DNA from: a virus
Taxonomy: Duplodnaviria; Heunggongvirae; Uroviricota; Caudoviricetes; Herelleviridae
Virus record (IMG/VR): IMGVR_UViG_2706796076_000001
Length of the DNA: 64,000 nucleotides
Strand: one strand, 5' to 3'
This document shows positions 1 through 63,981 of this stretch, piece by piece; position 1 is the first letter of the stretch, and every line of letters begins with the position of its first letter. The notes under the pieces were generated by a model. That model saw only the letters and a list, made by a program, of their open reading frames with translations, had not been told where the DNA came from and made no database searches. Position numbers and translations under genes: made by a program.

Positions 1-909
1 TTAGCATATAGCTTTAATTTTAAATTCCAAAGTTTTATGGCTTGTCAAAAGTTTTATGAATCCTATGCAGTGGTTCAATATGATAAAGATGATAACGTAG
101 TATTTGTAGAGGATTATGAACAGCATAATGTTAGAGTAGCATTATATTTATTCCAAGATGATTATGCTAAAGCTAGAGATATGCTTATTCAATTAATGGA
201 ACAAACATTACAACCAGCTACACCTACTTATTTACATTCAGGTAAAGGTAATAGAGGGGAATTAAGTTCTTGTTATATTTTTGTTGTAGATGATACAATA
301 GAATCTATTAACTTTGTAGCTAACTCGGTACGAAATGCAAGTAAAAATAGTGGTGGAGTATCCGTAGAAGCGTCTAGAATAAGACCTAAAGGAGCTACAG
401 TACAAGGCAACCCTAACGCTAGTCAGGGAGTTATTCCTTTTGCTAAAAATATTGAACAAGGTGTAAGCCACTTTAACCAAGCAGGTATGCGTCAAGGTTC
501 AGCTGTAGTTTATTTAAATGTATTTCATCAAGATATTGAAGACTTTTTAAGTTCTAAGAAAATTAATGCTAGTGAGAAAGTTAGGTTAGATACTTTATCT
601 TTAGGTGTTACAATTCCTAATAAGTTCATGGAATTAGTAAAAGATGATAGACCATTATACACTTTTGATACTTCTAATTTATATGAAGTAACAGGTAAAC
701 ATTTAGATGAGATTGATTTTAATGAAGAGTATGAAAATTTAATTAAAAATGATAACATTAAGAAGAAAAAATTAAATGCAAGAGATTTAATGACTGATAT
801 TGCTAAAACTCAATTAGAGAGTGGTTATCCTTACGTTTTCTATATTGATAATGCAAATGATAATCACCCACTAAAAGGTATAGGTAAAGTTAGAGCTAGT
901 AATTTGTGT
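1..909 (+). CDS. nrdE: Class Ib ribonucleotide reductase alpha subunit NrdE, exon 1 (5' partial; joins 1862..2830)
   Basis: Frame is open from nt 1. The product ends ...GKVRASNLC at the conserved active-site SNLC loop, then an in-frame stop follows at 913. The downstream continuation TEIAQL... is found after a 0.95-kb insert. Confidence 0.85.
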
Positions 910-1861
910 AAATAAATGCACCTTTAACGAGTAATCGTTATCGAAAAATCTATCTAAAACGGGAAAGCCTAAGTCTTAAGGATAAGGTAATCCGTTGCTA
1001 AATATATAAATTGTAATCACTCTAGTAATAAAAGGAGTGATACTATGGAAAATAAAAAACCTGTAGGTGCTGTGTATATCACAACATGCTTAGTAAATGG
1101 TAAAAAATATATAGGAAAATTTCTTTATTCAAGAATAAACAGTTGGGAAAAATACTTAGGTTCTGGAACATACCTTAAACAAGATATTAAGAAGTATGGT
1201 AAAGAAAACTTTAAAAAAGAGATAGTTCAAGGCTATTACACTAAAGAAGAGTTGGAAAAAGCTGAAGAAGAATTAATTCTTAAAACTAATGCTGTATATG
1301 ACGATAGTTATTATAATGTAAAACTATCATCAGTAGGTGGGGATATTTTTACTACCAATCCACGAAAAGAAGAAATTAGACAAATGAGAAGAGAACAAAT
1401 GGGTGGAAAAGGTAATCACCAATACGGTAAAAAGAAAACAGATAAAATGATAAATTCAGTTAAAAAGGCTAACTCAAGAGCAATAGAAATTGATGGTATT
1501 GAATATCCAAGTACATCTAAAGCATCTGATACTTTAGGAATAGGTAAAACTACTATTGGGTATAGGTTAGACTCAGAAAATTATCCTAACTATAAGAGAT
1601 TAACACCTAGAAAAACAAAAAAGAAATGATTACAATTTATATTAAATGCCCAACGACTATCCGTAACCTACTTACATATAGTAAGGGGAGAAGGTTAGAG
1701 CCAAGTGGTCAAGGTATTGAGTAATAATCATATAAAACCTTGTTAAATCGAAAAGGTAGACTTCCCAAGTGGAAGAATGATATAGTCTGCTCATTTATGG
1801 AAACATAAAGAAGTTCATAAGAGAACTGGTAGTGATTAACGACCACTACTGAACATATAGG
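910..1861 (+). mobile_element. Group I intron in nrdE carrying a GIY-YIG homing endonuclease gene
   Basis: It interrupts NrdE between SNLC and TEI. The 5' exon ends in T (909) and the insert ends in G (1861). GC-richer, ORF-free structured RNA lies at 1630-1860. An internal free-standing HEG ORF is present. Confidence 0.75.
1045..1629 (+). CDS. GIY-YIG homing endonuclease (intron-encoded)
   Basis: The N-terminus GAVYITTCLVNGKKYIGK is a GIY-YIG motif. An SD AAAAGGAG lies upstream. The C-terminal half is basic. Confidence 0.85.
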   Translation: MENKKPVGAVYITTCLVNGKKYIGKFLYSRINSWEKYLGSGTYLKQDIKKYGKENFKKEIVQGYYTKEELEKAEEELILKTNAVYDDSYYNVKLSSVGGDIFTTNPRKEEIRQMRREQMGGKGNHQYGKKKTDKMINSVKKANSRAIEIDGIEYPSTSKASDTLGIGKTTIGYRLDSENYPNYKRLTPRKTKKK

Positions 1862-2830
1862 ACAGAAATAGCACAATTACAAGAAGTATCAGATATACAT
1901 CCTTATATGGAATCTGATAAAGATAATATCGGTAGGGATGTTATTTGTACACTAGCATCATTAAACTTAGTAAATGTTGTAGAGAAAGGTTTACTTGAAG
2001 AGTCAGTTGATATGGGTATGCGTTCTTTGTCAAATGTTACTGATATGATGTATCTACCATTTTTACCTAGTGTAAATAAAGCTAATGATGAATTACATGC
2101 AGTAGGTTTAGGTTCACTTAATTTACATGGACTCTTAGCTAAAAATATGATTAGTTATGGTTCATTAGAAGCTTTAGACCTCATTAACAGCTTGTATAGT
2201 GCAATAAACTATAACTCTATTAAATCTAGTATGCACATTGCTAAAGAAAAAGGTAAGTCATTTAAAGGGTTTGAAAAATCCGAGTATGCTAATGGTAATT
2301 ATTTCAAACCATACATTAATAAATCTAATGAACCAACAACACAAAAAGCTAAAGAAGTTTTAGAAAAAGTGTATATCCCTAGTCAAGATGATTGGGAACA
2401 ATTAGCTAAAGATGTTAAAAGATACGGTTTATATAATGCTTACAGAAGAGCGGAAGCTCCAACACAATCTATTTCATATGTTCAAAATGCTACAGCAAGC
2501 ATTATGCCTGTACCTAGTGCGATTGAGAATAGACAGTATGGAGATATGGAAACATATTACCCTATGCCTTTCTTGAGTCCTATTACTCAATTCTTTTACG
2601 ATAATGAAACAGCATATAAATTAGATAATAAAAAAATCATAAATACAGGTGCTGTGGTTCAGAAGCATACAGACCAAGCAGTTTCTACAATTTTATATGT
2701 TGAATCAGAAATACCTACAAATAAACTAGTAAGTTTATACTACTATGCATGGTCTAAAGGATTAAAATCATTATATTATACACGTTCACGTAAGTTAGAG
2801 GTAATTGAATGTGAAACATGTTCGGTATAA
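1862..2830 (+). CDS. nrdE: NrdE exon 2 (C-terminal part)
   Basis: TEIAQLQEVSDIHPY..DNIGRDVICTLASLNL matches the region after the active-site Cys of NrdA/NrdE (E. coli LEIALP...EIALCTLSAFNL). A C-terminal CETC pair is present. Confidence 0.85.
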   Translation, partial: TEIAQLQEVSDIHPYMESDKDNIGRDVICTLASLNLVNVVEKGLLEESVDMGMRSLSNVTDMMYLPFLPSVNKANDELHAVGLGSLNLHGLLAKNMISYGSLEALDLINSLYSAINYNSIKSSMHIAKEKGKSFKGFEKSEYANGNYFKPYINKSNEPTTQKAKEVLEKVYIPSQDDWEQLAKDVKRYGLYNAYRRAEAPTQSISYVQNATASIMPVPSAIENRQYGDMETYYPMPFLSPITQFFYDNETAYKLDNKKIINTGAVVQKHTDQAVSTILYVESEIPTNKLVSLYYYAWSKGLKSLYYTRSRKLEVIECETCSV

Positions 2831-2844
2831 AGGAAGGAAAACAA

Positions 2845-3891
2845 ATGTCACTAAGAAAAGCAGTAGAATTAAATAATAAAGAAGATAAATTAGAACCAAT
2901 TAATTGGAATAAACAATCAGACGGTATGTCTGAGATTTATTGGAACCAAGGTGTTAATCAAATCTGGTTTCCTGAAGAGTTCGATATTTCCAGGGATTTA
3001 AATTCTTGGAATGAACTCTCTGACATTGAGAGAGAAACTTATAAAAAAGTTTTAGCAGGGTTAACTGGTTTAGATGCTAAACAAGGCGGAGAAGGTATGA
3101 ACCTTATTTCATATCAAGAACCTAGAAGACATTATAAAGCTGTTTTTGGATATATGGGTATGATGGAGTTTGTACATGAACGTTCATACTCTCATATATT
3201 TACAACTATTTTAAATAATAAAGAAACTAATTATTTATTAGATGAGTGGGTAAGAGAAGAAAGCCACTTAATTAAAAAAGCTCAATTTATTGGTTATTTT
3301 TACAAAAAGTTACTAAACCCAGAGCCTACTACTTTTGATAGATATATGGCAAAAGTTGCCAGTGCGTTTTTAGAGAGTGCCTTATTCTACTCAGGGTTCT
3401 ATTACCCTTTACTTTTAGCAGGTCAAGGTCGTATGACACAATCAGGAGCTGTTATATTTAAAATAACTCAAGATGAATCATATCATGGTTCAGCAGTAGG
3501 GTTGACAGCACAATATGATTATGAACAATTAACAGATACGGAAAAAGAAAAAGCTGATAAATTAATGTATAAATTACTTGACATATTATATGATAATGAA
3601 GTATCTTATACACATATGTTATATGATGACTTAGGATTAACTGAAGATGTAATTAGATATGTAGAATATAATTTTAATAGAGCCTTATCTAATTTAGGTA
3701 AAGAAGATTATTTTCATCCAGAACCTTTTAATGCTATTGTTAATAATCAAATTGATGTAGGTAGAATGAGACACGTAGATTTCTTTAGTGGGAAAGCAGA
3801 TTATGAAAAATCTACTAATATTAAAGATATTAAAGATGATGATTTTAATATCGAAGATAATGAAAGTGATTTAGTAGATAAATTTTTATGA
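2845..3891 (+). CDS. nrdF: Class Ib ribonucleotide reductase beta subunit NrdF
   Basis: EFVHERSYSHIF metal/radical site motif. SD AAAGGAAGGA before ATG 2845; the ORF track start at 2818 overlaps the nrdE stop. Confidence 0.85.
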   Translation: MSLRKAVELNNKEDKLEPINWNKQSDGMSEIYWNQGVNQIWFPEEFDISRDLNSWNELSDIERETYKKVLAGLTGLDAKQGGEGMNLISYQEPRRHYKAVFGYMGMMEFVHERSYSHIFTTILNNKETNYLLDEWVREESHLIKKAQFIGYFYKKLLNPEPTTFDRYMAKVASAFLESALFYSGFYYPLLLAGQGRMTQSGAVIFKITQDESYHGSAVGLTAQYDYEQLTDTEKEKADKLMYKLLDILYDNEVSYTHMLYDDLGLTEDVIRYVEYNFNRALSNLGKEDYFHPEPFNAIVNNQIDVGRMRHVDFFSGKADYEKSTNIKDIKDDDFNIEDNESDLVDKFL

Positions 3892-3930
3892 TAACCTTTT
3901 TATAGTATAACATAAGAAAGGAAAGTTATT

Positions 3931-4242
3931 ATGGATAGAAAAGAAGCATTAGTACTTATGAATAAAGCAGAGACTTTGTTTAAAAAGTATGATGATTTCA
4001 AATATGTAGAAGACTTATACGACCCTATTAAAATACTTAATCAGAAAGAAGATACTAGACCTGATTCAGAGTCTACTTCTTTTCAATTAGAATTTAGTTA
4101 TAAGAGTACTAATTATATTTTAGGGTATAATAACAGTGCACTCACAGTTATAGATAAGTCACAAGGATTAGAACATCCAATAGTTTATAATGTAAATAGC
4201 TTTGAAGAAGTAATTAATTTATTAGAAAAGGATGAAGAATAA
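3931..4242 (+). CDS. hypothetical protein (103 aa)
   Basis: ORF with SD GAAAGGAAAG, lying between nrdF and the thioredoxin-like gene. Confidence 0.55.
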   Translation: MDRKEALVLMNKAETLFKKYDDFKYVEDLYDPIKILNQKEDTRPDSESTSFQLEFSYKSTNYILGYNNSALTVIDKSQGLEHPIVYNVNSFEEVINLLEKDEE

Positions 4243-4244
4243 AT

Positions 4245-4568
4245 ATGGAAAAATTAGAAAGCTTAGTAGACTTAAATACAAAAATCTCATACAATGATGA
4301 CGCTATTGTATTAATTTCACAAGACGGATGTGCTAAATGTGAGATTTTAAAAAATATCTTACCTGAATTTGAAAAGACTGGAGATATTACAAAACCTATT
4401 TTCTCATTAAATTTAGATGATGAAGATGTGGATAGAGAGTTAGCTATCGAGAAATTTAATGTTATGAGTACTCCTTTGTTACTTTGTTTTAAAAACGGAG
4501 AACTTAAAGTTACTTTAGAAGGTGACGATGTAAACCCTATGAAATTTAAAGATTTAGAAAATATTTAA
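4245..4568 (+). CDS. thioredoxin/glutaredoxin-like redox protein (CxxC), likely RNR electron donor
   Basis: A CAKC motif sits in a thioredoxin-fold-sized 107-aa protein directly downstream of nrdEF. Confidence 0.6.
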   Translation: MEKLESLVDLNTKISYNDDAIVLISQDGCAKCEILKNILPEFEKTGDITKPIFSLNLDDEDVDRELAIEKFNVMSTPLLLCFKNGELKVTLEGDDVNPMKFKDLENI

Positions 4569-4633
4569 ATTTAATTTTGATAAATCTCACTTTTATGGTA
4601 TAATTAATTTATACAAAGAAGTGAGGTTTTTTT

Positions 4634-5359
4634 ATGGCAAAAAATAAAACACTAACTATATATAATAGTGATAGATATTTCAATATTCATACTAAAGATA
4701 AAAAAGAAATAAGTAAATCAATAAAAATAACACATGCAAATGAAGAGGATATAGAAAAAAATCTAGATAAGGTAGCTACTAAGTCTAGTAGATATATACT
4801 CAAAGATGATAATACTTATATGTTATTTAATGAGAAGTATAATAACGATAGGCTTATTGAGAAAGTATGTAAACATGGAGGCGGTGTTTACTATTATACA
4901 GATTCTATTATACCTTATTATGTATTTAAAGACTTATCTACAAACCAAAATTCAGCAGTTGTTTATAAAATGCGTGAGCGTTTTTCAGATAAAGAAATTG
5001 ATAATATAGCATTATCCTTTATGGGAACTAAAGTAATAATTGATATTTCAATAGTACTTCCTTATGTAAATCCTTATGAAATTATTAGAAATTTACATCC
5101 AATTAAAACTAATGTTGATGAGGTTCACTTAACATTCCCTAAGATAAGAACAATTGAAGAAAAACAAAAAAAATTTTATGATTTTGATGGTGAAGGTTAC
5201 GTACTAAAACCTGAATATAAAATTGATTTTGCTGAAAGAATTAGAGTATCTCTATCTGTATGGAAAATGTATATCTATATCCTTACTAGTGAAGAAGACC
5301 ACCAAGATGTTACAAATGAGATAACTAAATTAAAAAAACAAAAGAATGTTAAACTGTAG
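4634..5359 (+). CDS. hypothetical protein (241 aa)
   Basis: ORF with SD GAAGTGAGG. Confidence 0.55.
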   Translation: MAKNKTLTIYNSDRYFNIHTKDKKEISKSIKITHANEEDIEKNLDKVATKSSRYILKDDNTYMLFNEKYNNDRLIEKVCKHGGGVYYYTDSIIPYYVFKDLSTNQNSAVVYKMRERFSDKEIDNIALSFMGTKVIIDISIVLPYVNPYEIIRNLHPIKTNVDEVHLTFPKIRTIEEKQKKFYDFDGEGYVLKPEYKIDFAERIRVSLSVWKMYIYILTSEEDHQDVTNEITKLKKQKNVKL

Positions 5360-5367
5360 GTATAATA

Positions 5368-5667
5368 ATGACAGTAAATAGAAAAGATATAGCTAGAAGA
5401 ATATCAGAGGAAACAGGATACTACATACAGGATATAGAAGAAATATTAGAAGCAGAATCAAAAGCTATCGTTGATTTCATTGACGAAGGGCAAGAAAAAA
5501 TAAAAAATCATAAATTATATCAAATAGAAGTAATTGAAAAACCAGAAAAAAGAGCATGGAATGGATTAGATAAGAAGTATTATACTATACCTAGTAAGAA
5601 AGTACTTAAGATTAAACCTATGAAATACTTAGAAGAAGCAAATGAAAGACTTAGAGAGACAGATTAA
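5368..5667 (+). CDS. HU/IHF-like DNA-binding protein (putative)
   Basis: A 99-aa protein whose N-terminus MTVNRKDIARRISEETG...AIVDFI.. resembles HU/IHF family N-terminal helices. The basic arm is ...KRAWNGLDKKYYTIPSKKVLKIKP. Confidence 0.45.
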   Translation: MTVNRKDIARRISEETGYYIQDIEEILEAESKAIVDFIDEGQEKIKNHKLYQIEVIEKPEKRAWNGLDKKYYTIPSKKVLKIKPMKYLEEANERLRETD

Positions 5668-5687
5668 AAAATTTGTCTCTTTTTTTA
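5654..5687 (+). terminator. rho-independent terminator
   Basis: Hairpin AGAGACAGATT/AATTTGTCTCT followed by T7. Confidence 0.55.
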
Positions 5688-5716
5688 TTGACATTAAAGA
5701 TATTCTATGGTATCAT
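5688..5716 (+). promoter_or_regulatory. sigma70-like promoter of the DNA polymerase gene
   Basis: TTGACA, a 17-nt spacer, then TATCAT with an upstream TG (TGgTATCAT). Confidence 0.55.
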
Positions 5717-5747
5717 ATATTTAAACAAGTGTAAGGAGAAGATAAAT

Positions 5748-7976
5748 ATGAAAGCTTTAATTTTATACGACCACATAAGAGAAGAACATTTTAAAGTTAC
5801 AGATGATAATAAAACAAGATTAAATCTTTTTAATACTCAAAATGGTAAAACTTTAAAAATGTTATTAGAGAGATGTTCAGGTTTAGTAAGAGATAATTCT
5901 AGAAAAGATTATGATATTGATTTTGTGTATAAGGCTATACCAACACCTGTAACAAATAATTACGGTAAGATTGTTAAATACCAAGATGTAAAGCAAACAG
6001 AAGTTAAACCTTATTACTCAGAATTAACTAAACGAATTATTGATAATAATTATGATATTATTGTTCCTTTAGGTAAACTAGGTATTAAATTTTTACTAAA
6101 CGTTACAAAATTAGGTTCAGTAAGAGGTGTACCTCACAAAATAACATTAAGTACTGAAAATACAAGTAAAGGTGTTTGGGTATTACCTACTTATAGTATT
6201 GAATACACTAATGTTAATAAAAATGCTGAACGTCATGTAGTTACAGACCTTAATTTATTAGGTAAATTTGTAAAAAATGGAGAAGAAGCCTTTAAACCTA
6301 AAAAAGTGTCATATGAACTTGTAACAGATATTGAAAGAGTAAGAGAGATTTTTACTAAAGAAGTAAAAAAAGATAATAATGATGGTATAGATATAACAGC
6401 TTGGGATACAGAGACTAATTCACTAAAACCAGATAGAGCAGGAAGTAAAGTTTTAGTAGTATCTTTAAGTTGGAAAAACGGACAAGGTGTCACAATACCT
6501 ATTTATAAATCTGATTTTAATTGGAAAAACGGACAAAAAGATATTGATGAGATACTAAGTTACTTAAGAGAGTGGTTAGCTGATAAAGAGGATATAAAAG
6601 TAGGTCATAACATTAAATATGATATAAAATTCCTAATGAGTACACTAGGATTTAACACATTTGAAAATAATCAAGACACACTTGTAGGCTGGTATTTAGC
6701 TGTAACACAAGAAACCACAGATTCTAAACGCCTGTCTGACTTAGCATATGAGGTTACAGATATGGGTGGGTATGACACACCGTTAGAAGAATTTAAAAAA
6801 TGGTTTAGTAGAAAATTACTTAAATTCTTGTCAGAAAAAATGTCTACTATTATTAAAGATAACAAGAGTATTGCAAAAAAAGAACATAATATTAAAGCAA
6901 CAGAATATAAAAATTGGTTATCTGAAAACATTAGTGTGGATAAAGAAGTAGAGCTTGATAAATATGAGCAAAAAACAGAAATGAATAGTACTGATAAGCA
7001 ATATATTCAATTAGGTTTACACCCAGAACGATTAACAAAAACAATGTTAATGGGTGATTCAGAGTTTGAAGAGGTAGCTAAGCTTTCGGATGAGTATATG
7101 TCTTTAAGTGATGAAGGTAAAGAATATACACTTAAAACAGCTTTAGAATTAATTAATAGGTTTAAAAAACATACAGATGTATATAATGAAGTTGATGGTG
7201 GTAAGTTTAATTATGATTGGATTCCTTTAGAACTAATGCACCCTTATGCTAGTGGTGACGTTGATGTATGTCGTAGAATTTATTCTAATATACTAGAAAA
7301 ATTAAAAGACCAACAACGACCTAAAGCAATAAAGTTATGGCAACAAGATTATCCAAGGTTAGATAGAACCCTAGCAAGAATAGAGAGTAATGGTCTATAT
7401 GCTGATTTAGATTACATGGAAAAGAATGACAAAGCCTATGAATTAGAATTAACTAAAATTGAAAATAAAATAAGAGAACATTGGGCGGTAAAAGAATTTG
7501 AAGAAGAAAAATATAACTTATATGAACTAGGTTTAGAAGAGTTTAGTAAACCTAAAAAAGAAAGAGACCCAGAAATAGAGAAGTACAGAAATAAGTATAA
7601 AGATGATGGGTGGAAATTTAATATAGGGTCAGGAGACCATAAAAGTGAACTATTGTATAAAATATTAGGTTTTGAATTACCTTATGACCAGAACTACGTT
7701 AAAGCTACCTCTTTTGAGAAAAAGAAAGAGCAAGATATTAGTTGGGAAGACTATAAAACAGATACTAAAGCTCTAGGATATATATTATCTGATTTAGAAG
7801 TAACAGAAGATAACAAAGAACTAATAGAAGACTTATTATACTACGCCTCTATACGAACAAAACGAAACTCATTTACTCATAAGCTTCCTAGAATGGTTAA
7901 TAAAAACACACAAACACTACATGGTAGTTTCTCATCAACAACTACAAGTACAGGAAGATTAGCCAGTAGTAACCCT
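5748..7976 (+). CDS. DNA polymerase I-like (family A) with 3'-5' exonuclease, exon 1 (joins 9074..10063)
   Basis: SD GTAAGGAGAAG before ATG 5748. An exo motif ITAWDTETNSL is present. The exon ends ...TGRLASSNP immediately before the conserved NLQNIP motif, followed by an in-frame stop. Confidence 0.85.
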
Positions 7977-9073
7977 TAAATTGGGGTTGTAAAACTTTGT
8001 TAACTGCGGGGAGAAACTTGTTAGGTCTTAACTACTAACTTATAATGGAAACATATATAAGGGCAAACAGTAATGTGTTTGGTACAGTAAAAAGGTTAAG
8101 AATAAAGAGAATCCGCAACCAAGCCCCTGAAAGTGTATGGAAGTATGGGGAAGGCTCAACGACTAGGTGTTGAGGTAGCACAACCAATACACACCCACGA
8201 AAGCAAGGATATTATTTCTGTGGTAGGGAATAGTAAGGAAGAGTATATGAAAGAAGTTTGGAAAGATTATGATGATAAATATAAAGTAAGTAATACAGGT
8301 AGAGTAATAAATAAAATTACTAAGCATGAATTAAAACCATGGATTATTAATTCAGGGTACAAACAAGTTACAGTTACTGAGGGTAACATATTAGTACATA
8401 GATTAGTAGCAAAGCTTTTTATACCTAACAATAATCCTAATCTAAATGTTGTTAACCACATCGATAATAATAGATTGAATAACCACGTAAACAACCTAGA
8501 ATGGGTAGATTATAGGGGCAATACCTTACACTCTGCTAAACAAGGTAGACAAAATACGTATAGTGCTAGGGAACAACTTAAAAAGGTATCTAATAAAGCA
8601 GTATATCAAAAAGATATGGAAGGTAATATTGTTAAGGTGTGGGATTCACCCACTCAAGCACAAAGAGAAACTGGTGGGTATTTTAGCCCATCACAAATAA
8701 GTCAAGTAATTTCTGGAAGACATAAATCACATAAAGGTTATAAGTGGGAGTATGTAAATAAAGAGTCTAAAAGAAGTAAAAATATGAAAATTGATGTATT
8801 TGACTTAGACGGTAATCTATTGTATACTAAGTATAGTATGAATAAGGTGATGAAACTACTCAACATGAATAATCATAAGACATTGAGAGATAAATTAAGA
8901 AAAACAGATGACTTTGTAGAGTATAAAGGATATAAATTTAGAAACAGTAAATAAACAATAAACCTACCACAGAAATGATATATGATATAGTCTGTCCTAT
9001 ATAGAGATATATAGCTATTGTTTAAATGACAATAGATACAATATAATAAATAAATTATATTGTACACAAGTAA
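7977..9073 (+). mobile_element. Group I intron in the DNA polymerase gene carrying an HNH homing endonuclease gene (exact 3' boundary uncertain)
   Basis: The coding sequence resumes exactly at NLQNIVAHTSN...DYSALELRV (Pol A motif A) at 9074. GC-rich structured RNA lies at 7980-8130. The inferred intron ends in A rather than the canonical G. Confidence 0.65.
8247..8954 (+). CDS. HNH homing endonuclease (intron-encoded), NUMOD4-like N-terminus
   Basis: KVSNTGRVINK is a NUMOD4-like motif. VHRLVAKLFIPNNNPNLNVVNHIDNNRLNNHVNNLEW is an HNH motif. SD AAGGAAG before ATG 8247; the upstream extension to 8133 is probably untranslated intron RNA. Confidence 0.8.
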   Translation: MKEVWKDYDDKYKVSNTGRVINKITKHELKPWIINSGYKQVTVTEGNILVHRLVAKLFIPNNNPNLNVVNHIDNNRLNNHVNNLEWVDYRGNTLHSAKQGRQNTYSAREQLKKVSNKAVYQKDMEGNIVKVWDSPTQAQRETGGYFSPSQISQVISGRHKSHKGYKWEYVNKESKRSKNMKIDVFDLDGNLLYTKYSMNKVMKLLNMNNHKTLRDKLRKTDDFVEYKGYKFRNSK

Positions 9074-10063
9074 AATTTACAAAATATTGTAGCACACACA
9101 TCTAATGTCAATAAATTTGATTATCATCACCCTATTAAACGTTCTTTTGTTTCAAGATTTAACAATGGTGTAATTTTACAAGCCGATTATTCAGCTTTAG
9201 AGCTCAGAGTTACTGGTTTGATGACAAAAGATAAAGATATGACTAATATTTTCTTACACGGGGGAGACCTACACAAGAATACAGCAAGCTTAGTGTATAA
9301 TAAACCAGAGGAAGAGATAACTACTGATGAACGTACAAAAGCAAAAACAGTAAGTTTCTCATTATTGTATGGTGACGTTCCATTTTCTTTTGCTAGTAAA
9401 AATAATATGCCTGTAGAAGAGGCAGAAGAATTATTTGATAATTACTATAAAAATAAGCCAGCTGTAGGACAAGCGATTGAAGACACGCATGAGTTTGCAC
9501 AAAAACATGGTTATGTAGAAACATTACATGGGTTTAGACGATTTTTAGGTAATGCTACAAGTAATGATAAACAAAAAAGAAATCAAGCTTTAAGACAATC
9601 ATTTAATGCTAGAATACAAGGTTTAGGTTCATGGTTTACAAGTATGGCAATTACTTATATTGATGATTTTATTCAAACTAGAAATATGAAGTCTAAACTT
9701 ATTGCCACAGTACATGATAGTATTGTAGTTGATACACACCCAGATGAAGTTAAAGTTATGGCTAAAGTTGTATTACATTGTATGCAAAACTTACCTTTTG
9801 ATTTCTTATACATTGAGTATGAAGGAGAGAATATTAGGTATCCTATTGTAGCAGATATGGAAATAGGAACAAGCTATGGAGATTTAGTAGAATATGATGA
9901 AAATCATATGAATGAATTTAACTCTCCTATTGGTTATGTTAAATACATGTTAGCACTCCAAAAAATACAAGATTATTTTGAATCAGGTAAGATTACTGAA
10001 GAAGAAAAAGAAAGTAAAGAAAATTATATTAAAGGAAATAAAAAAGCATTTACTAAAATTTAA
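9074..10063 (+). CDS. DNA polymerase exon 2 (motifs A, B, C)
   Basis: NLQNI..., DYSALELRV, KTVSFSLLYG and VHDSIVVD are present. It reads in frame from 9074 directly after stop 9071-9073. Confidence 0.8.
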   Translation, partial: NLQNIVAHTSNVNKFDYHHPIKRSFVSRFNNGVILQADYSALELRVTGLMTKDKDMTNIFLHGGDLHKNTASLVYNKPEEEITTDERTKAKTVSFSLLYGDVPFSFASKNNMPVEEAEELFDNYYKNKPAVGQAIEDTHEFAQKHGYVETLHGFRRFLGNATSNDKQKRNQALRQSFNARIQGLGSWFTSMAITYIDDFIQTRNMKSKLIATVHDSIVVDTHPDEVKVMAKVVLHCMQNLPFDFLYIEYEGENIRYPIVADMEIGTSYGDLVEYDENHMNEFNSPIGYVKYMLALQKIQDYFESGKITEEEKESKENYIKGNKKAFTKI

Positions 10064-10064
10064 T

Positions 10065-10094
10065 ATTGACAAACTATATCTATTTATGATATAG
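10065..10094 (+). promoter_or_regulatory. sigma70-like promoter
   Basis: TTGACA, an 18-nt spacer, then TATAGT with upstream TG. Confidence 0.5.
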
Positions 10095-10116
10095 TTATGT
10101 CAAAGGAGGAATTGAT

Positions 10117-10599
10117 TTGGAAATTCATGTAGATAGTCTAGATTTTACAGAACTTACTATTGTTGATATGAATGGTGAAGCTAAAACATTCAATATTCAT
10201 GATGAGCTAAAACTAAGTGAATATACTATACAACAAGAGATGTATACACAGTCTAGTAAGTATGCTTTTTGGAGCTCTTTACTTGAGAGAGTTAGAGCTT
10301 ATGCAGAAGCAGAAAGTAGAAAGTTAGAGCAAATAGGAGCTTCTGTAAATAAACAAGTAAGACAAGGATATACACAGCAAAAAATTAAACCAACTAAAGA
10401 TGTTATAGAATCAGATATTTTGCTTAATGAAAGTTATCAAAAGCAACAACAAATTGTAGAACAATGGAATTACAAAGTAAAACAATTACAGTATATTGTA
10501 AAAGCTTGGGAACAACGTTCTACAATGTTAGTACAGTTATCAGCAGAACTAAGACAAACAAATAAAAATGGTGGAATGACTAATCCATTTTCACATTAG
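10117..10599 (+). CDS. hypothetical protein (160 aa, TTG start, predicted coiled coil)
   Basis: SD AAAGGAGGAA 7 nt before TTG. Confidence 0.5.
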   Translation: MEIHVDSLDFTELTIVDMNGEAKTFNIHDELKLSEYTIQQEMYTQSSKYAFWSSLLERVRAYAEAESRKLEQIGASVNKQVRQGYTQQKIKPTKDVIESDILLNESYQKQQQIVEQWNYKVKQLQYIVKAWEQRSTMLVQLSAELRQTNKNGGMTNPFSH

Positions 10600-10689
10600 A
10601 ATACAAATTCTTATAAATTTAAACTTGACAAATGGAATAAACTATGTTACAATCATAACATAATAAAAATAAAGGAGAGAAATATAATA

Positions 10690-11934
10690 ATGTCAGCATT
10701 TACAGAATTTATTAATCAACAAGCAAAAGAAACACAAAATAATAACAATAATGAGGTGGAATATTATACACCTAAAAATCCAGTTATTCGATTAGGTAAG
10801 CAAAAAGATGGTTCAACTAAAGATTCAATTTTAGTACGTATTTTACCACCTAAAAAAGAAGGTTCTTTAGAGTTTTATAAGAAATTTAGAAACACAGGTA
10901 TTAACTTCAACAATAAAAACAATGAGCAAAAATTCGTAGGATTAACACTACCAGCTACTTCAGGAGAATCAGTCATTGACCCGTTTATTGAATCTTGGAT
11001 AGCTAATAAGGTTCCTTTTAGTCGATTCCCTAATAGACCATCTAACAGATATTACATTGAAGTTATTGAGTATATTAATAATGGTGGTACTTTACAACCT
11101 GTAGTAGATAACTCAGGTAATCCTAAGATTTCACCTTTAGAAATTCCTATTACAGCATATAATGCTTTAGCTAGTCAATTAGGAGATGAAATGTTTAACC
11201 CTTCTCCTTCAGCTAAGTTTAGTTTTATTTCTGAAGATATTGCTTATCCTGTAATGTTTAAGAAAGCAAAAGAAAATGATAAAACAAATTGGTATGTTCA
11301 AGTATACTCTAATCCACAATATCAATTTGGTAATTTACCATCTAATTGGAGAGAGTTATCTTCAGATTTAGATAAATTAGCTCAACCTACAGAAGAGGTG
11401 AACCCTAATCTTGTTAACTTCTTAATTAATAAAGTAAATGGAACACCTTTAGAAACAGATAACTTTACTTTCAACAGAGATACAAATACATTAGGGGATG
11501 CACCTAGCCAACCACAACAACCTGTACAACAAACACAACAACCACAACCAACACAACAACAAGTAGAACAACAGTTACCAGGTAATTTAAGTAATCAACC
11601 ACAACAAAACACACAACAAGTACCACAGAACGATTGGAATACTATTAATACTCAATCGCAACAGACTACTCAACAACCAACTCAACAGCAACAGTTTAAT
11701 CAGGTACAACAAGCACCACAGCAACCACAACAACCACAAGGAAATAATCCTTGGGAGAATTTTGATGAGAATACTATTAATGATTCTCAAGTACCTTTCG
11801 ACACTGGAAGTCAGCAACAACCACCTCAACAACAAAACGTACAACAAAATCAACAACAATATCAAGAACCTCCTAAAATGGAACAGCCAAAAAATGTTGA
11901 TGATGTTTTAAAAGGTTTAAATCTAGACATTTAA
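10690..11934 (+). CDS. putative ssDNA-binding / replication accessory protein with Q/P-rich low-complexity linker
   Basis: It sits between the polymerase and the recombinase. The N-terminal domain has gp32-like spacing (VIRLGKQKDGS...ILVRILPP) but no Zn ligands. A ~100-aa QQPxQQ tract precedes a short C-terminal tail. Confidence 0.3.
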   Translation: MSAFTEFINQQAKETQNNNNNEVEYYTPKNPVIRLGKQKDGSTKDSILVRILPPKKEGSLEFYKKFRNTGINFNNKNNEQKFVGLTLPATSGESVIDPFIESWIANKVPFSRFPNRPSNRYYIEVIEYINNGGTLQPVVDNSGNPKISPLEIPITAYNALASQLGDEMFNPSPSAKFSFISEDIAYPVMFKKAKENDKTNWYVQVYSNPQYQFGNLPSNWRELSSDLDKLAQPTEEVNPNLVNFLINKVNGTPLETDNFTFNRDTNTLGDAPSQPQQPVQQTQQPQPTQQQVEQQLPGNLSNQPQQNTQQVPQNDWNTINTQSQQTTQQPTQQQQFNQVQQAPQQPQQPQGNNPWENFDENTINDSQVPFDTGSQQQPPQQQNVQQNQQQYQEPPKMEQPKNVDDVLKGLNLDI

Positions 11935-11938
11935 TATT

Positions 11939-11965
11939 AGAGTGCTTAAGCACTCTTTTATTTGA
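11939..11965 (+). terminator. rho-independent terminator
   Basis: Perfect palindrome AGAGTGCTTAAGCACTCT followed by a T-rich run. Confidence 0.6.
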
Positions 11966-11991
11966 TTTTTATATTGAAAGGTGATAAGATA

Positions 11992-12204
11992 ATGGCAAGA
12001 GCAAAAAAAGGTAAAGAAATAGATATGAAAGATTACAATACCATTGATTTAGGTAAAGAAATGGGTTTAACTCTATTATCAGATAGTAATAAAGCAGACA
12101 TTACAAATATAATTCCTACTATGGTTCCTCAATATGATAGAATTCTAGGGGGAGGTATTCCTTTAGGAAGACTTACAGAAGTGTATGGGCTAACGGGCAG
12201 TGGT
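11992..12204 (+). CDS. RecA/UvsX-like recombinase, exon 1 (joins 13581..14597)
   Basis: IPTMVPQYDRILGGGIPLGRLTEVYGLTGSG is the RecA N-terminus reaching into Walker A. SD AAAGGTGA is present. The frame is stopped right after GSG. Confidence 0.8.
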
Positions 12205-13580
12205 TGCCTTAAATAGCCACAGTGACTTGTAAAGAGTTATTACAAACCCATGTGAATTGCTGGGAAGCCTTAAAGACTTATTAACTACAACGTAACTGGA
12301 AACAGTAGGCGTGAATGTTTAAAAATAATAAGTATATGAGTTATATGGTATAACGAAAACTTTTTGTTATATTATATAGTGTAGGTAATCAGCATCCAAG
12401 CTTCTAAGTTGAAAAATAAGAAGAAGGTTCAACGACTATCGAAAAGATATCTAGTACCGAGAGGTATTAGAGAGTAACTGAGTAGAGTAAAAGATATTAA
12501 TCTTTGAAGTGCATGGGAATTGCCTACGAAATCTATTAGAAAAATGGAGAGTAGTATAATATGGTAAAACGAGTTTGGACTAATGAAGAGAAACAAGATA
12601 TAGTAAAATCATTTCAAGAAGGTAAAACGTTTAAAGAATTACAAGATAAGTATAATGCACATTATTTCACTATCAAGAAAATTTTAGATGAGTTTAATAT
12701 TGACACAAATAAAAAACGAAGATGGACTAATAAGCAAAAACAAGATATACTAAGAATGTATACTAAAGAGTCTATGACTATAGCAGAGATAAAAGAGGTA
12801 TATACAACACACGCAAGAGAAATAGGTAGAATACTAAAAGACTTTGGAGTAGATACTTCTTACTATCAAACTAGAAGCGTTAATAGAAATATAAATAGAA
12901 ATTTCTTTGAAGTAATTGATACTGAAGAGAAAGCTTATATACTAGGTTTATTAATGGCTGATGGGTGTGTTAGATATAGACGAGAAGGGCAATGTTACTT
13001 AACACTAGAATTGATTGATAAAGAAATAGTAAAAAGAGTTCAAAAAGAATTGAATTCAGACAGTAAAATATATGAATCACATAGAAAAAGAGATTATATA
13101 AAAAACGAAAAACAAACTTATACTTTTAGTGTTACCGATGAAAAACTATGTAATGACTTAGCTAAATATGGTATAGTACCTATGAAGTCTAAAAAAACAG
13201 AATGGTTAACACAAGATATACCTTATGATTTAAGAAAGCATTATTTAAGAGGGTTATTTGATGGTGATGGTTCAATCGGGTATTATAATAATAGATGGTT
13301 TATAACTTTAATTAATAATCATCCTGAATTTTTAAAGGATGTAGGTACTTGGATTAATGATTTATTAGGTTTAAAATGTCCTAAAGTATCTAAAACTAGT
13401 ACCTCTTATAGAATAGGTTATACAGGTAAAAAAGCTAAAGAATTAATGAAATTACTATATCAAGATAATAATATTCATATAGACCGAAAGCAAAAACTTG
13501 CAGACCAGGCAATTCAAGATATAGTCTAAGCCCACTATTAAATTAGTGTTAAAGTACTAGGAAACTAGGGGTAGTAACTG
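12205..13580 (+). mobile_element. Group I intron in the recombinase gene carrying a LAGLIDADG homing endonuclease gene
   Basis: It splits Walker A as GLTGSG|KSTFAV. The 5' exon ends in T (12204) and the insert ends in G (13580). Structured GC-richer RNA lies at 12217-12560. Confidence 0.75.
12561..13529 (+). CDS. LAGLIDADG homing endonuclease (double-motif) with N-terminal duplicated HTH-like modules
   Basis: YILGLLMADGCV and YLRGLFDGDGSI are the two LAGLIDADG motifs. Two N-terminal ~50-aa repeats read WTNEEKQDI.../WTNKQKQDI... Confidence 0.8.
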   Translation: MVKRVWTNEEKQDIVKSFQEGKTFKELQDKYNAHYFTIKKILDEFNIDTNKKRRWTNKQKQDILRMYTKESMTIAEIKEVYTTHAREIGRILKDFGVDTSYYQTRSVNRNINRNFFEVIDTEEKAYILGLLMADGCVRYRREGQCYLTLELIDKEIVKRVQKELNSDSKIYESHRKRDYIKNEKQTYTFSVTDEKLCNDLAKYGIVPMKSKKTEWLTQDIPYDLRKHYLRGLFDGDGSIGYYNNRWFITLINNHPEFLKDVGTWINDLLGLKCPKVSKTSTSYRIGYTGKKAKELMKLLYQDNNIHIDRKQKLADQAIQDIV

Positions 13581-14597
13581 AAATCCACGTTTGCAGTACA
13601 CTTATCTAGAATAACTACACAACTAGGTGTTATTACTATTTGGATTGATATTGAAGGAACAGCAGATAACCAACGAATGAAGCAACTAGGGGTAGATGTA
13701 TCTAAATTATTTACTATTCAAGCAGGAGAAGGTAGACTTAAAAATACTGTTGAATTATCAGTAGAAACTGTAGGAAAAGAATTAGAATATTGGATTGATA
13801 CTTTTAACGAAAAAGCACCTGGTGTACCTATTTTATTTATTTGGGATTCTCTAGGAGCTACAAGAACAGCTAAAGAAATTGAAGGAGGAATTGATGAAAA
13901 ACAAATGGGTTTAAAAGCCTCAGCTACACAAAAAGTAATCAATGCTATTACTCCTAAACTCAATGATACTAATACAGGGTTAGTTATCATCAACCAAGCT
14001 CGCGATGATATGAACGCAGGTATGTATGGTGACCCTATAAAATCAACAGGTGGAAGAGCTTTTGAGCATGGTGCTAGTTTACGTATTAAAGTAACCAAGG
14101 GTGCTGAATCAGGTCTTAAACAAACAGATGTAACAACAGGTAAGCCTACTTATAGAGGTCATGTAATGCGTATTGAAACTAAAAAATCTAAATTAGTTAC
14201 ACCAGGACAAAAAGCGGAAGCAGATTTATTATCAAGTTATGAAGTAGGCTCTAAAGATGATACGATGTTATTAGATGGTATTGACCCTTATCACACAGTT
14301 TATAAGGAAGCAGTAGAACGAGGTTTAATTTCTAAAGGAACATGGCGTAACTATGTAACTTTAAATGGTGAAGAAATTAAACACTATGATAAAGATTGGG
14401 TTCCTACACTTGTTAATAATCATGATTTGTATTTAGAATTATTTAGTAGAGTATACTTTGAAAACTTTCCTACTAAGTATCGACCTTTAGAAAATAAAAT
14501 AGTGGATATTACTACTATTGAAGAATATCAAGCTCTTAAAGATTTTTATGAGATTAAAAGTACTGAAATTGAAAACAAAGGTACGGATGAAGAATGA
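13581..14597 (+). CDS. RecA/UvsX-like recombinase, exon 2
   Basis: KSTFAVHL..ITIWIDIEGTADNQRMKQLGVDVSKLFTIQAGEG parallels RecA ...[39 protein letters not shown]. Confidence 0.8.
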   Translation, partial: KSTFAVHLSRITTQLGVITIWIDIEGTADNQRMKQLGVDVSKLFTIQAGEGRLKNTVELSVETVGKELEYWIDTFNEKAPGVPILFIWDSLGATRTAKEIEGGIDEKQMGLKASATQKVINAITPKLNDTNTGLVIINQARDDMNAGMYGDPIKSTGGRAFEHGASLRIKVTKGAESGLKQTDVTTGKPTYRGHVMRIETKKSKLVTPGQKAEADLLSSYEVGSKDDTMLLDGIDPYHTVYKEAVERGLISKGTWRNYVTLNGEEIKHYDKDWVPTLVNNHDLYLELFSRVYFENFPTKYRPLENKIVDITTIEEYQALKDFYEIKSTEIENKGTDEE

Positions 14598-14962
14598 CAA
14601 ATAGTTATAATTTAATAGACCAAAATATAGATAGAGTAAAACAATCTTTAAGTGAATCTAATTCAAAAGATACAACACCTAGAGAGTATATTAGTATTGC
14701 TAAAAAATTTCAAAAAGTAAAAGATAATAATGAATCAGTAATTGTGGAAGAGGGTACTTTTCCACATACTGATTCTAATGTAATGTATATTAATTATGTC
14801 TCAGATAGATGGGTAGGAGGCTATTCACTACTTAGATATGAAAATAGTACAGTTAAAGTACCTAGAACAATACATTATTCAGATATTTTTGTAAGGGATA
14901 AAAATCATAAAATAAAAATTATTTTTGAAGGAGCAAACCCTTATGAAGAAGAACAACGGTAA
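14594..14962 (+). CDS. hypothetical protein (122 aa)
   Basis: ORF overlapping the recombinase stop (ATGA). Confidence 0.5.
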   Translation: MTNSYNLIDQNIDRVKQSLSESNSKDTTPREYISIAKKFQKVKDNNESVIVEEGTFPHTDSNVMYINYVSDRWVGGYSLLRYENSTVKVPRTIHYSDIFVRDKNHKIKIIFEGANPYEEEQR

Positions 14963-15599
14963 TAGATATGTAATTGATTCTGATGGTATACCTATTGATT
15001 TTGAAAGAGATATAGATAAATTACTTAATAAATATAAAAATTTAAGATGGTCTCTATATCATAAATATGCAGGTATATTATCTAATGATGCTGAAAGGGA
15101 AGACTTACGAGAGTATATAGACGAGCAGTTTATTAAACTTGTTAAAGAATATGATATACACAGTAAAGTTGATTTTCCTGGATATATTAAAGCAAAATTA
15201 ACTCTAAGAGTACGTAATAGTTATATTAAAAAAAATAAAAAATATAAAAGTACAGAGTTGATAGGTAAAAAAGAATCTACAGTAGAATCTCTAACTGAAG
15301 CTCTAACTACAGGTATAGAAGAAAGTGAATTAATACGATATGTGTTTGATGATGTAGAATTTACAGAACTACAAAGTATTTTATTAAAAGAATTACTAAT
15401 GAATGAAGATATGGAAGATGAAAAGTATATAGTTAATAGAGTATCCGAAGACACTCAAATTAAACGTAAAGATGTAGCAAAAGAGCTGTCAGAACTAAAA
15501 GATTATGTAAAATTTAAAATTAATGCTTATCATGAGTATAATAGACACATAGATAGTAATACACATAGAGTATATACTGAAAATAATGTTTGGGAATAA
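14943..15599 (+). CDS. putative RNA polymerase sigma factor (sigma-70 region 2 / region 4-like)
   Basis: DAEREDLREYIDEQFIKLVKEYD...LRVRNSYIKK is region 2-like. A C-terminal HTH is present. SD GAAGGAG lies 9 nt before ATG 14943. Confidence 0.45.
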   Translation: MKKNNGNRYVIDSDGIPIDFERDIDKLLNKYKNLRWSLYHKYAGILSNDAEREDLREYIDEQFIKLVKEYDIHSKVDFPGYIKAKLTLRVRNSYIKKNKKYKSTELIGKKESTVESLTEALTTGIEESELIRYVFDDVEFTELQSILLKELLMNEDMEDEKYIVNRVSEDTQIKRKDVAKELSELKDYVKFKINAYHEYNRHIDSNTHRVYTENNVWE

Positions 15600-63294: not shown

Positions 63295-63981
63295 CTATTG
63301 TTTATCTAAGGTTAATATAACAAAAAAAAGACCTATTTTAAGTAGCATATATTTTTCTTTTTTGAAGCTAGAATCATGCTTACCTCTTATATGTTGTGTT
63401 AGGTTTCCTTTACTTTTTATTTCTTTATTACAATAAGGACAATAATAAATTTCTGAATTTTTCTTAGATATACGTTTACTTGCTTCTTTTCTGGTATCGT
63501 GACTATCTCTAATATGTCTTTTTAGTGAAATTCCACTTTTAATTTTCTTACCGCAATAATGACATATTCTTTGCTTACTTAATGTATTTGATATTTTTTC
63601 TTTTGTTTCTTTAGATAGTTTTGAACCTGTTCTTCTGGTTTTTATTAGATGTTCTGTTGTCATTTTTTTCCCATAAAAAGGATTATTTTTCCCAAATAAT
63701 CCTCTTACACCTAATCCTCCGTTTGCAATATTATATTCTGCTTTATTTTGTGCTCTATAAAAAGAAATATAATAAATTTCTCTATTATTTAACTCATCGA
63801 ATGTTTCACACCATTCAAGTAAAATTGTTTTAAAGTTATCTTTACCATATTTTTTAATAGCTCGTTTTATTAATTTTCCACTACCTTTATATCCTATATC
63901 AAAGTAACCAGATTTATGTTGTCCTATATATGTTTTGCCATTGATTAAATTTGTAGTTTTATAAACATAACCATACATCAT
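63295..63981 (-). CDS. free-standing GIY-YIG homing endonuclease with NUMOD3-like linker and two C2H2-type zinc fingers
   Basis: YGYVYKTTNLINGKTYIGQ is the GIY-YIG motif. NPFYGKKMTTEH is NUMOD3-like. CHYCGKKIKSGISLKRHIRDSH and CPYCNKEIKSKGNLTQHIRGKH are C2H2 fingers. Confidence 0.75.
   Translation of the reverse strand: MMYGYVYKTTNLINGKTYIGQHKSGYFDIGYKGSGKLIKRAIKKYGKDNFKTILLEWCETFDELNNREIYYISFYRAQNKAEYNIANGGLGVRGLFGKNNPFYGKKMTTEHLIKTRRTGSKLSKETKEKISNTLSKQRICHYCGKKIKSGISLKRHIRDSHDTRKEASKRISKKNSEIYYCPYCNKEIKSKGNLTQHIRGKHDSSFKKEKYMLLKIGLFFVILTLDKQ

Follow-up and report, generated by a model that had tools for sequence, protein, structure and literature searches.

Group I introns and their homing endonuclease genes in three replication genes of Staphylococcus phage vB_SepM_phiIPLA-C1C

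Three split replication genes and their inserts

The 64,000-nucleotide (64-kb) stretch of phage DNA analysed here (IMG/VR record IMGVR_UViG_2706796076_000001; hereafter the window) carries in its first part the genes for the large subunit of ribonucleotide reductase (RNR; nrdE), a Pol A-family DNA polymerase (pol) and a RecA/UvsX-like recombinase, each of them split in two by an insert that holds a homing endonuclease gene. Positions 1-15000 are 100% identical to positions 61209-76208 of Staphylococcus phage vB_SepM_phiIPLA-C1C (KP027447 / NC_028962; C1C below), a published Staphylococcus epidermidis myophage of the genus Sepunavirus (Herelleviridae, Twortvirinae). In KP027447 two 'ribonucleotide reductase large subunit' coding sequences (CDSs) flank a 'group I intron GIY-YIG homing endonuclease', two 'DNA polymerase' CDSs flank a 'group I intron HNH homing endonuclease', and a 'recombination protein' and a 'DNA repair protein' flank an 'intein DOD homing endonuclease'. 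The three split genes with their introns are already known and annotated, and are typical for this phage group apart from the odd end of the pol intron; with the phage published and its split genes annotated, the finding in itself adds little. On the evidence set out below we consider it very probable that the nrdE, pol and recombinase genes of C1C each contain a single mobile intron belonging to the phage IA type of group I. A preliminary description of the window had proposed that three replication genes are each interrupted by a group I intron with a distinct homing endonuclease family, and this is borne out by the intron cores, the Pfam families and the intron-less alleles of relatives. 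All coordinates refer to the window and, unless stated otherwise, to its plus strand.

The window opens within nrdE exon 1 (1..909), the 5' part of which is cut off by the window start (in KP027447 the gene begins 240 nt upstream) and the 3' end of which reads ...AAT TTG TGT (SNLC) at position 909, while exon 2 (1862..2830) begins ACA GAA ATA (TEI). The limits of the 952-nt intron between them (910..1861) follow from the intron-less alleles of the phages SEP1 and 80A, SEP1 having an uninterrupted ...RASNLCTEIAQ... at this place, so that the split between SNLC and TEI at the active-site Cys loop, together with its GIY-YIG gene, is exact in the sequence as first described. The Cys before the splice site aligns with C382 of Bacillus subtilis NrdE (6CGL). 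It is the catalytic thiyl-radical cysteine of class I RNRs, and the Glu of TEI at the start of exon 2 is the catalytic glutamate; the intron thus lies right after the C382 equivalent and two codons before the catalytic Glu. Its I-TevI-like GIY-YIG homing endonuclease gene (1045..1629, 194 aa) occupies the P6a loop, with a Shine-Dalgarno (SD) sequence, AAAGGAG, just upstream. The protein has an N-terminal GIY-YIG catalytic domain and a C-terminal I-TevI-type DNA-binding domain, as expected of this class: Pfam recognises PF19835 SegE_GIY-YIG (43.2 bits, cut-off 25), PF01541 GIY-YIG (25.9 bits, cut-off 22.6) and PF20987 I-TevI_DNA-bd (30.8 bits, cut-off 27), and the protein matches the homing endonuclease family PHROG 314 (E 4e-34).

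Exon 1 of pol (5748..7976) ends GGA AGA TTA GCC AGT AGT AAC CCT (GRLASSNP) and exon 2 (9074..10063) begins AAT TTA CAA AAT ATT (NLQNI) and holds motif A (DYSALELR), motif B (RTKAKTVSFSLLYG) and motif C. The junctions of the 1097-nt intron (7977..9073) come from the intron-less pol of phage Terranova, which reads SSSNPNMQNLP with unchanged spacing, and from a brute-force splice scan. When exon 1 is aligned to Klenow polymerase (R668...P674) the insertion point corresponds to Klenow P674|N675 in the motif TGRLSSxxPNLQNIP; motif A (D705) follows after about 30 residues and the O-helix after about 80. The site is a conserved motif of the active-site cleft; the split SSNP|NLQNI and its HNH gene stand as first described, but the site had wrongly been called O-helix-proximal. 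The PNLQN region of polymerase genes is a known intron hot spot (PMC3428280). Two metagenome contigs (L021, L022) carry unrelated intron-less polA genes with an exact 23-nt match, AGTAG(C/T)AACCCTAATTTACAAAA, across the homing site, which shows the strong conservation of the target DNA. The HNH gene, I-HmuI- and I-KsaIII-like, most probably spans 8247..8954 (235 aa) within the P8 loop: an SD sequence and ATG lie at 8235-8249 and this start agrees with that of I-KsaIII in Kayvirus, while the GenBank start (8145) and the start of the longest open reading frame (ORF; 8133) both fall inside the ribozyme core (P6a, P7, P3') and are probably over-extended. In the ORF 8133-8954 Pfam finds NUMOD4 (31.2 bits, cut-off 23.4) and, slightly under its cut-off of 24.8, HNH_3 (22.5 bits), and residues 1-217 of the protein match PHROG 59 'HNH endonuclease' (E 1e-41); an N-terminal NUMOD4 module is thus followed by an HNH motif, the I-HmuI-type arrangement.

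The recombinase gene is split inside its Walker A box, as GxxxxG|K[ST]. Exon 1 (11992..12204) ends GGG CTA ACG GGC AGT GGT (GLTGSG) with the first half of the motif, and exon 2 (13581..14597) begins AAA TCC ACG TTT GCA GTA (KSTFAV) with the second. The limits of the 1376-nt intron (12205..13580) are taken from the intron-less SEP1 allele, which reads without interruption GLTGSGKSTFAV; the split GLTGSG|KSTFAV with its LAGLIDADG gene is in this way confirmed to the nucleotide. That gene (12561..13529, 322 aa), a homologue of I-MsaII, lies in the P8 loop, and its end (CAA GAT ATA GTC TAA) also supplies the ribozyme with the 3' strands of P8 and P7, that of P7 being made up by the last four codons and the stop. 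Pfam finds LAGLIDADG_3 in two stretches (57 bits), and the protein matches PHROG 4645 (E 2e-139). An AlphaFold model of it (pLDDT, predicted local distance difference test, 89.4) has a monomeric double-LAGLIDADG core preceded by two three-helix helix-turn-helix (HTH) modules (about residues 8-44 and 57-94), and Foldseek places this model next to I-Tsp061I, the bI3 maturase, I-AniI and I-SceI (E 3e-9 to 1e-6); a sequence search of the PDB with the protein returned nothing useful. Residues D134/G135 and D234/G235/D236/G237 are invariant in 34 homologues, and each of the two LAGLIDADG domains therefore has its conserved acidic residue, as in the monomeric double-motif class. The N-terminal HTH duplication noticed earlier is real, the two modules being 40% identical over 48 residues (E 1e-12), and it is conserved across the protein family: the modules are retained in full-length homologues down to 45% identity, and more distant relatives have Pfam-called HTH domains at the equivalent place.

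All three insertions thus fall inside conserved functional motifs of essential replication genes, as had been claimed. The list of ORFs and a direct reading of the DNA give the same junctions (SNLC/TEI, SSNP/NLQNI and GLTGSG/KSTFAV), and the comparison with intron-less alleles that the preliminary description had proposed restores the reading frames and fixes the junctions exactly. Each intron is precisely absent from such alleles, those of nrdE and the recombinase from SEP1 and 80A and that of pol from Terranova and Quidividi.

Ribozyme cores, splicing and rival readings of the inserts

Each of the three inserts contains a complete group I core with P1, P3-P9 and the elements CAACGACUA and GAUAUAGUCU, and in all three P1 with its U.G pair, P3, P4, P6a, P7, P8 and the P9 hairpins could be located by hand. 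Both the P4-P6 and the P3-P7-P8-P9 domains that define group I are present in 3/3 inserts, the element R (..CAACGACUA) pairing with the element S (GAUAUAGUC) to form P7, and in 3/3 introns the 5' exon ends in a U that forms the U.G wobble of P1. The whole window has exactly three copies each of the P7-forming sequences CAACGACTA and GATATAGTCT, one of each per insert and in the correct order, where 0.14 and 0.25 occurrences are expected and none of 100 shuffles reaches three; their co-occurrence in the three inserts is not due to chance.

The nrdE intron pairs GUGU with GCAC in P1 (906-909 / 918-921, wobble U909.G918), meets an in-frame TAA at 913-915, and continues through P2 (926-939), P3 (949-955 / 1754-1760), P4 (958-963 / 992-996), P6a (1004-1016 / 1630-1642), the 5' strand of P7 within CAACGACUA (1651-1659), P8 (1761-1775), the 3' strand of P7 within GAUAUAGUCU (1779-1788) and P9 to P9.2 (1794-1850) to its terminal G at 1861. 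For pol, P1 is AACCCU/GGGGUU (7971-7976 / 7983-7988, wobble U7976.G7983), a TAA stop follows the exon immediately (7977-7979), and a perfect 6-bp P10, UAAAUU/AAUUUA, joins 7977-7982 to 9074-9079; then come P3 (7995-8001 / 8201-8208), P4 (8005-8010 / 8113-8117), P6a (8123-8127 / 8147-8151), CAACGACUA (8157-8165), P7.1/7.2 (about 8166-8195), P8 (8209-8227 / 8963-8981), GAUAUAGUCU (8984-8993), P9 (8997-9014), P9.1 (9015-9035), P9.2 (9036-9064) and the 3' tail CACAAGUAA (9065-9073), whose last G is 9070 and whose terminal base is A. A consensus computed with RNAalifold over six pol-intron lineages recovers P1, P3, P4, P5, P6a, P7.1/7.2, P8, P9 and P9.1 with 14 compensatory pairs. In the recombinase intron, P1 is GUGGU/GCCAC (12200-12204 / 12216-12220, wobble U12204.G12216) with a TAG stop at 12214-12216, followed by P3 (12247-12254 / 12509-12517), P4 (12258-12264 / 12389-12394), CAACGACUA (12430-12438), P8 (12518-12524 / 13508-13514), GAUAUAGUCU (13518-13527), the P9 hairpins (13533-13568) and a terminal G at 13580.

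Covariance searches agree with these assignments in part. An intron-family scan, one of the checks proposed at the outset, gives partial matches to the Rfam group I model RF00028 in all three inserts, each below the gathering score: scanned alone, the nrdE insert matches at 958-1038 (31.4 bits, E 5.9e-6) and 1664-1810 (25.9 bits), the pol insert at 7995-8208 (17.8 bits) and 8904-9014 (19.8 bits), and the recombinase insert at 12258-12438 (20.8 bits, E 0.0036). The matches flank the endonuclease genes, with P3/P4-P6-P7 on one side and P7'-P9 on the other, and they are partial and sub-threshold because these genes occupy the P6a or P8 loops. Phage introns with endonuclease genes in their loops are known to split into partial RF00028 matches in the same way (PMC11878797). 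The IMG/VR contig L016 has the same pol intron without an endonuclease gene (L016 11925-12227), and this copy aligns to positions 1-253 of the model with 42.5 bits (E 1.2e-9). Rfam used at its gathering threshold overlooks all three introns, a point that matters for automated scans.

From the established group I mechanism we predict that the introns splice and that their endonucleases are active in C1C. Each intron would be transcribed within the precursor messenger RNA and fold into its ribozyme core (P3-P9), while the last four to six exon bases would pair with the internal guide sequence and leave the U.G wobble at the splice site. Exogenous guanosine would cleave the 5' splice site and the freed exon would attack the 3' splice site, rejoining NLC-TEI, SNP-NLQ and GSG-KST. 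The exon-frame stop that lies 0-3 codons past each 5' splice site may bar ribosomes from the folding ribozyme, and the endonuclease would be made from its own free-standing, SD-led gene in a peripheral loop (P6a for GIY-YIG, P8 for HNH and LAGLIDADG). In a mixed infection the enzyme would attack the conserved motif of the intron-less allele, cutting or nicking it, and the intron would be copied in during repair.

Several observations weigh against reading the inserts as three splicing group I introns. Neither the window nor the ORF-less homologue in L016 contains an RF00028 match at the gathering threshold (50 bits, a curated detection cut-off and not a biological property), and an E-value scan with the model over 15 kb gave noise only, the cores being seen only in narrow insert-by-insert scans. 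Splicing of these three C1C introns was not found in the literature searched, and spliced, cDNA-like (complementary DNA) contigs were sought in public collections and none was found. For pol in particular, a protein search with a 220-aa peptide spanning the junction found no C1C-like continuous protein, a scan of IMG/VR with a pattern joining exon 1 to exon 2 (0-3 extra bases allowed) gave no match, the same pattern met only unrelated intron-less polA genes sharing the conserved target in metagenomes, and the contigs retrieved with the exon 1 protein were all genomic and contained the intron. Moreover, the base before pol exon 2 is A9073, and the last G (9070) precedes an in-frame UAA.

Two other explanations of the inserts have to be weighed against group I splicing. 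In one, the genes are truly in pieces: the endonuclease genes would be free-standing, there would be no functional intron, and the enzymes would assemble from two polypeptides, the model case being mobE in the nrdA gene of Aeromonas phage Aeh1. GenBank does list each half as a CDS of its own, and ORFs with ATG or TTG starts are found downstream at 1907, 9218 and 13677, but proteins begun there would lack essential residues, which lie upstream of any second-half start codon: the second half of nrdE would lose TEIAQLQEVSDIHPY, including the catalytic Glu, that of pol would lose NLQNI... through motif A (DYSALELR), and that of the recombinase would lose the Walker A KST plus 30 more residues. As every endonuclease gene is moreover flanked by a complete ribozyme core, and the exon halves have no SD-led start at the junctions, we regard genes in pieces as very improbable, and a split gene of the Aeh1 nrdA/mobE type was rejected.

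The other explanation concerns the recombinase alone, where the GenBank note 'intein DOD homing endonuclease' implies an insert with a DOD (LAGLIDADG) endonuclease domain that is removed by protein splicing. Besides the note itself, a weak Pfam Hom_end match in the LAGLIDADG ORF, a Cys as the first codon after GSG, and the frame that this ORF shares with exon 2 speak for an intein. Translation of the exon frame, however, would end at TAG (12214-12216) three codons past the junction, and the LAGLIDADG ORF, which has an SD of its own, begins only 356 nt inside the insert and closes at TAA (13527-13529), 51 nt before exon 2. The first residue of exon 2 is Lys, where Cys, Ser or Thr would be needed, the C-terminal His-Asn is absent, and a full group I core with the P1 U.G pair and a terminal G is present. 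We therefore give the intein almost no credence. The label (GenBank AJA42249) is a mislabel of an intron-encoded LAGLIDADG endonuclease gene, as the stops, the flanking non-coding ribozyme and the Lys start indicate, and its correction is a useful outcome of this analysis.

The 3' end of the polymerase intron

A terminal guanosine is near-universal in group I introns. The nrdE and recombinase introns have it (G1861, G13580) and follow exons ending in U (U909, U12204), which agrees with the U...G rule that the preliminary description had applied to these two genes; pol, which has A9073, had been kept out of that rule, and rightly so, as no G-ending pol intron yields a full-length polymerase. 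When all pairs of splice sites were scanned at the pol junction, only U7976|A9074 or C7975|A9073 kept PNLQNI in an open frame, and in the brute-force scan no intron ending in G at or before 9073 gave a full-length open pol frame. P1 and the perfect P10 both point to the junction 7976|9074. The peculiarity belongs to a whole clade: throughout the C1C/SEP1 clade the pol intron has the end ...CACAAG-UAA|AAUUUA in every copy (7 phage records, 3 IMG/VR contigs and another 10 contigs), an end seen in loci L003-L006, L010, L014, L015, L019 and L025-L034, whereas the homologous introns of the K-like 515A1, 184DA, EW7, L016 and L017 read ...G|AAUUUA, so that the Kayvirus intron ends in the canonical G and the C1C-clade copy in GUAA. 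Homologues ending in G occur in four other lineages. No tRNA (transfer RNA) genes were found within the 64-kb window when a suppressor tRNA for the in-frame UAA was sought.

We infer that the pol exons are joined after A9073, because these phages are viable. One explanation of the unusual end is that the C1C-clade intron is decaying or spliced non-canonically, so that full-length enzyme would come from splicing after A9073, a minor or unusual 3' site. The difference between the G before AAUUUA in the homologues and CACAAG-UAA in all C1C-clade copies, the lack of any G-ending open frame in the splice scan, and a P10 (7977-7982 / 9074-9079) that indicates 9074 would all suit such an explanation. 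Decay seems to us on the whole unlikely, since many viable lytic phages, isolated independently of one another, have this allele fixed, and a functional polymerase must therefore be made, and since the rest of the core is intact, including the G-binding pair of P7, which is unchanged in the C1C-clade intron. Splicing after G9070 would give AACCCU|UAAAAUUUA with its in-frame UAA and a truncated polymerase. Somewhat better placed, though still short of probable, is the idea that the intron ligates after an adenosine (A9073) under the guidance of the strong P10, or that it splits its output between a UAA-terminated, exonuclease-only product (G9070) and full-length polymerase. If true, either outcome would mean that an essential phage gene uses an unusual mechanism at its 3' splice site, and a non-G intron end would be of interest to ribozyme specialists if cDNA bears it out. 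In Golestan101-M (Staphylococcus phage, LC557520; L012 about 1600-1620) the pol intron reads ...UAG-AAA|AAUUUA, where the AAA may either add a Lys codon to PNLQN or mark a second non-G intron end.

Distribution, closest known systems and other features of the window

The three introns are present or absent independently of one another among eight relatives, none of which carries all three, unlike C1C. The nrdE intron occurs only in BE25 and Twillingate, the pol intron in all but Quidividi and Terranova, and the recombinase intron in Quidividi, PG-2021_1 and Kayvirus. For the recombinase, the introns of C1C and Kayvirus 515A1 are 99.4-100% identical, while their exons are 73-86% identical, and the high identity extends beyond the intron by only 9 nt on the upstream side and 5 nt on the downstream side; across Kayvirus phages this intron is given as 99.6% identical. 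Such near-identity amid divergent exons fits recent homing of the intron between phage genera, and makes it useful as a clean case of cross-genus transfer. Beside the intron, synonymous changes (ACG GGC AGT in C1C, ACA GGT TCA in the empty SEP1 allele) are found, and those in exon 1 create the exon strand GUGGU of P1. In Twillingate (L005) the nrdE intron lies at the same site but is only 82.6% identical to the C1C copy against about 96-99% for the flanking exons, which suggests an independent acquisition or a replacement. In Stau2 (Staphylococcus phage, Silviavirus; L023 1380-2240) nrdE is interrupted at the same Cys codon by an intron with a core 86% similar, whose endonuclease gene stands after P9, not in P6a, an example of endonuclease genes being shuffled between loops.

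Twort-like phages are textbook cases of phages with many introns in their replication genes. Among the sister Sepunaviruses (SEP1, Twillingate, Quidividi, BE25, 80A and Terranova) the same genes are affected and the introns, where present, are 95-99.9% identical; their annotations already state 'interrupted by intron', and each phage holds a different subset. Precise boundaries have been reported for introns in the RNR and pol genes of these sister phages (PMC6597688), and the distribution of Twortvirinae introns is 'well documented' (PMC11878797), so that the pattern was correctly said to be known from Twort-like phages. The Kayviruses, including phage K, carry their pol intron 2 (I-KsaIII, HNH) and their recombinase intron (I-MsaII; MSA6, Team1, fRuSau02 and 812) in the same host genes and at the same insertion codons as C1C, with endonuclease genes of matching size (HNH 708 nt, LAGLIDADG 969 nt) and a pol intron whose core is about 76-90% identical to that of C1C and whose P1 and P10 are the same. 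They differ from C1C in having a second pol intron (I-KsaII) and no nrdE intron. The earlier remark that a LAGLIDADG intron in the P-loop is less commonly described does not hold, because the K-like phages have already been reported to carry the same pol and recombinase introns (I-KsaII/III and I-MsaII), with peptides from both Rec halves (PMC5618024), and the recA intron of phage 812 is listed as well (PMC2504315).

Similar arrangements are found further afield. The pol introns of SPO1, SP82 and Bastille (I-HmuI, I-HmuII and I-BasI) are likewise IA-type introns in a Herelleviridae Pol A gene, and encode nicking endonucleases of the I-HmuI HNH family; these introns interrupt the finger/palm region close to the PNLQN motif (PMC3428280). 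The C1C HNH protein resembles this family in its NUMOD4, HNH_3 and weak I-HmuI NUMOD-like matches. Introns in the nrdE gene of Twort itself were reportedly described by Landthaler et al. in 2002. Twort and B. cereus-group nrdE and T4 nrdB and td likewise have group I introns, those in RNR genes adjoining catalytic residues, and the I-TevI-like GIY-YIG gene of the C1C nrdE intron sits in the P6 loop as in T4 td. In its 3' part (P7'-P9, about 80 nt) the C1C nrdE intron shares 76% similarity with that of T4 nrdB and 80-86% with introns of Silviavirus, and this part also resembles tail-gene introns annotated 'intron_gpI' in a Silviavirus. In B. cereus, nrdE is interrupted at four different intron sites (PMC2504315).

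Outside the three split genes, positions 4215-4236 are the empty site of a roughly 1.4-kb insertion encoding an IS605-family OrfB/TnpB 'transposase'; SEP1, Twillingate and BE25 have the insertion there, flanked by the same pair of genes. Between pol and the recombinase lies a glutamine-rich ORF (10690-11934), possibly for a protein like single-stranded DNA-binding proteins, which varies in length among the relatives, BE25 having no counterpart of window positions 11608-11721 within it. A further annotated GIY-YIG homing endonuclease gene, apparently free-standing, lies on the minus strand at 63295-63978, flanked by a tail protein gene and a resolvase gene.

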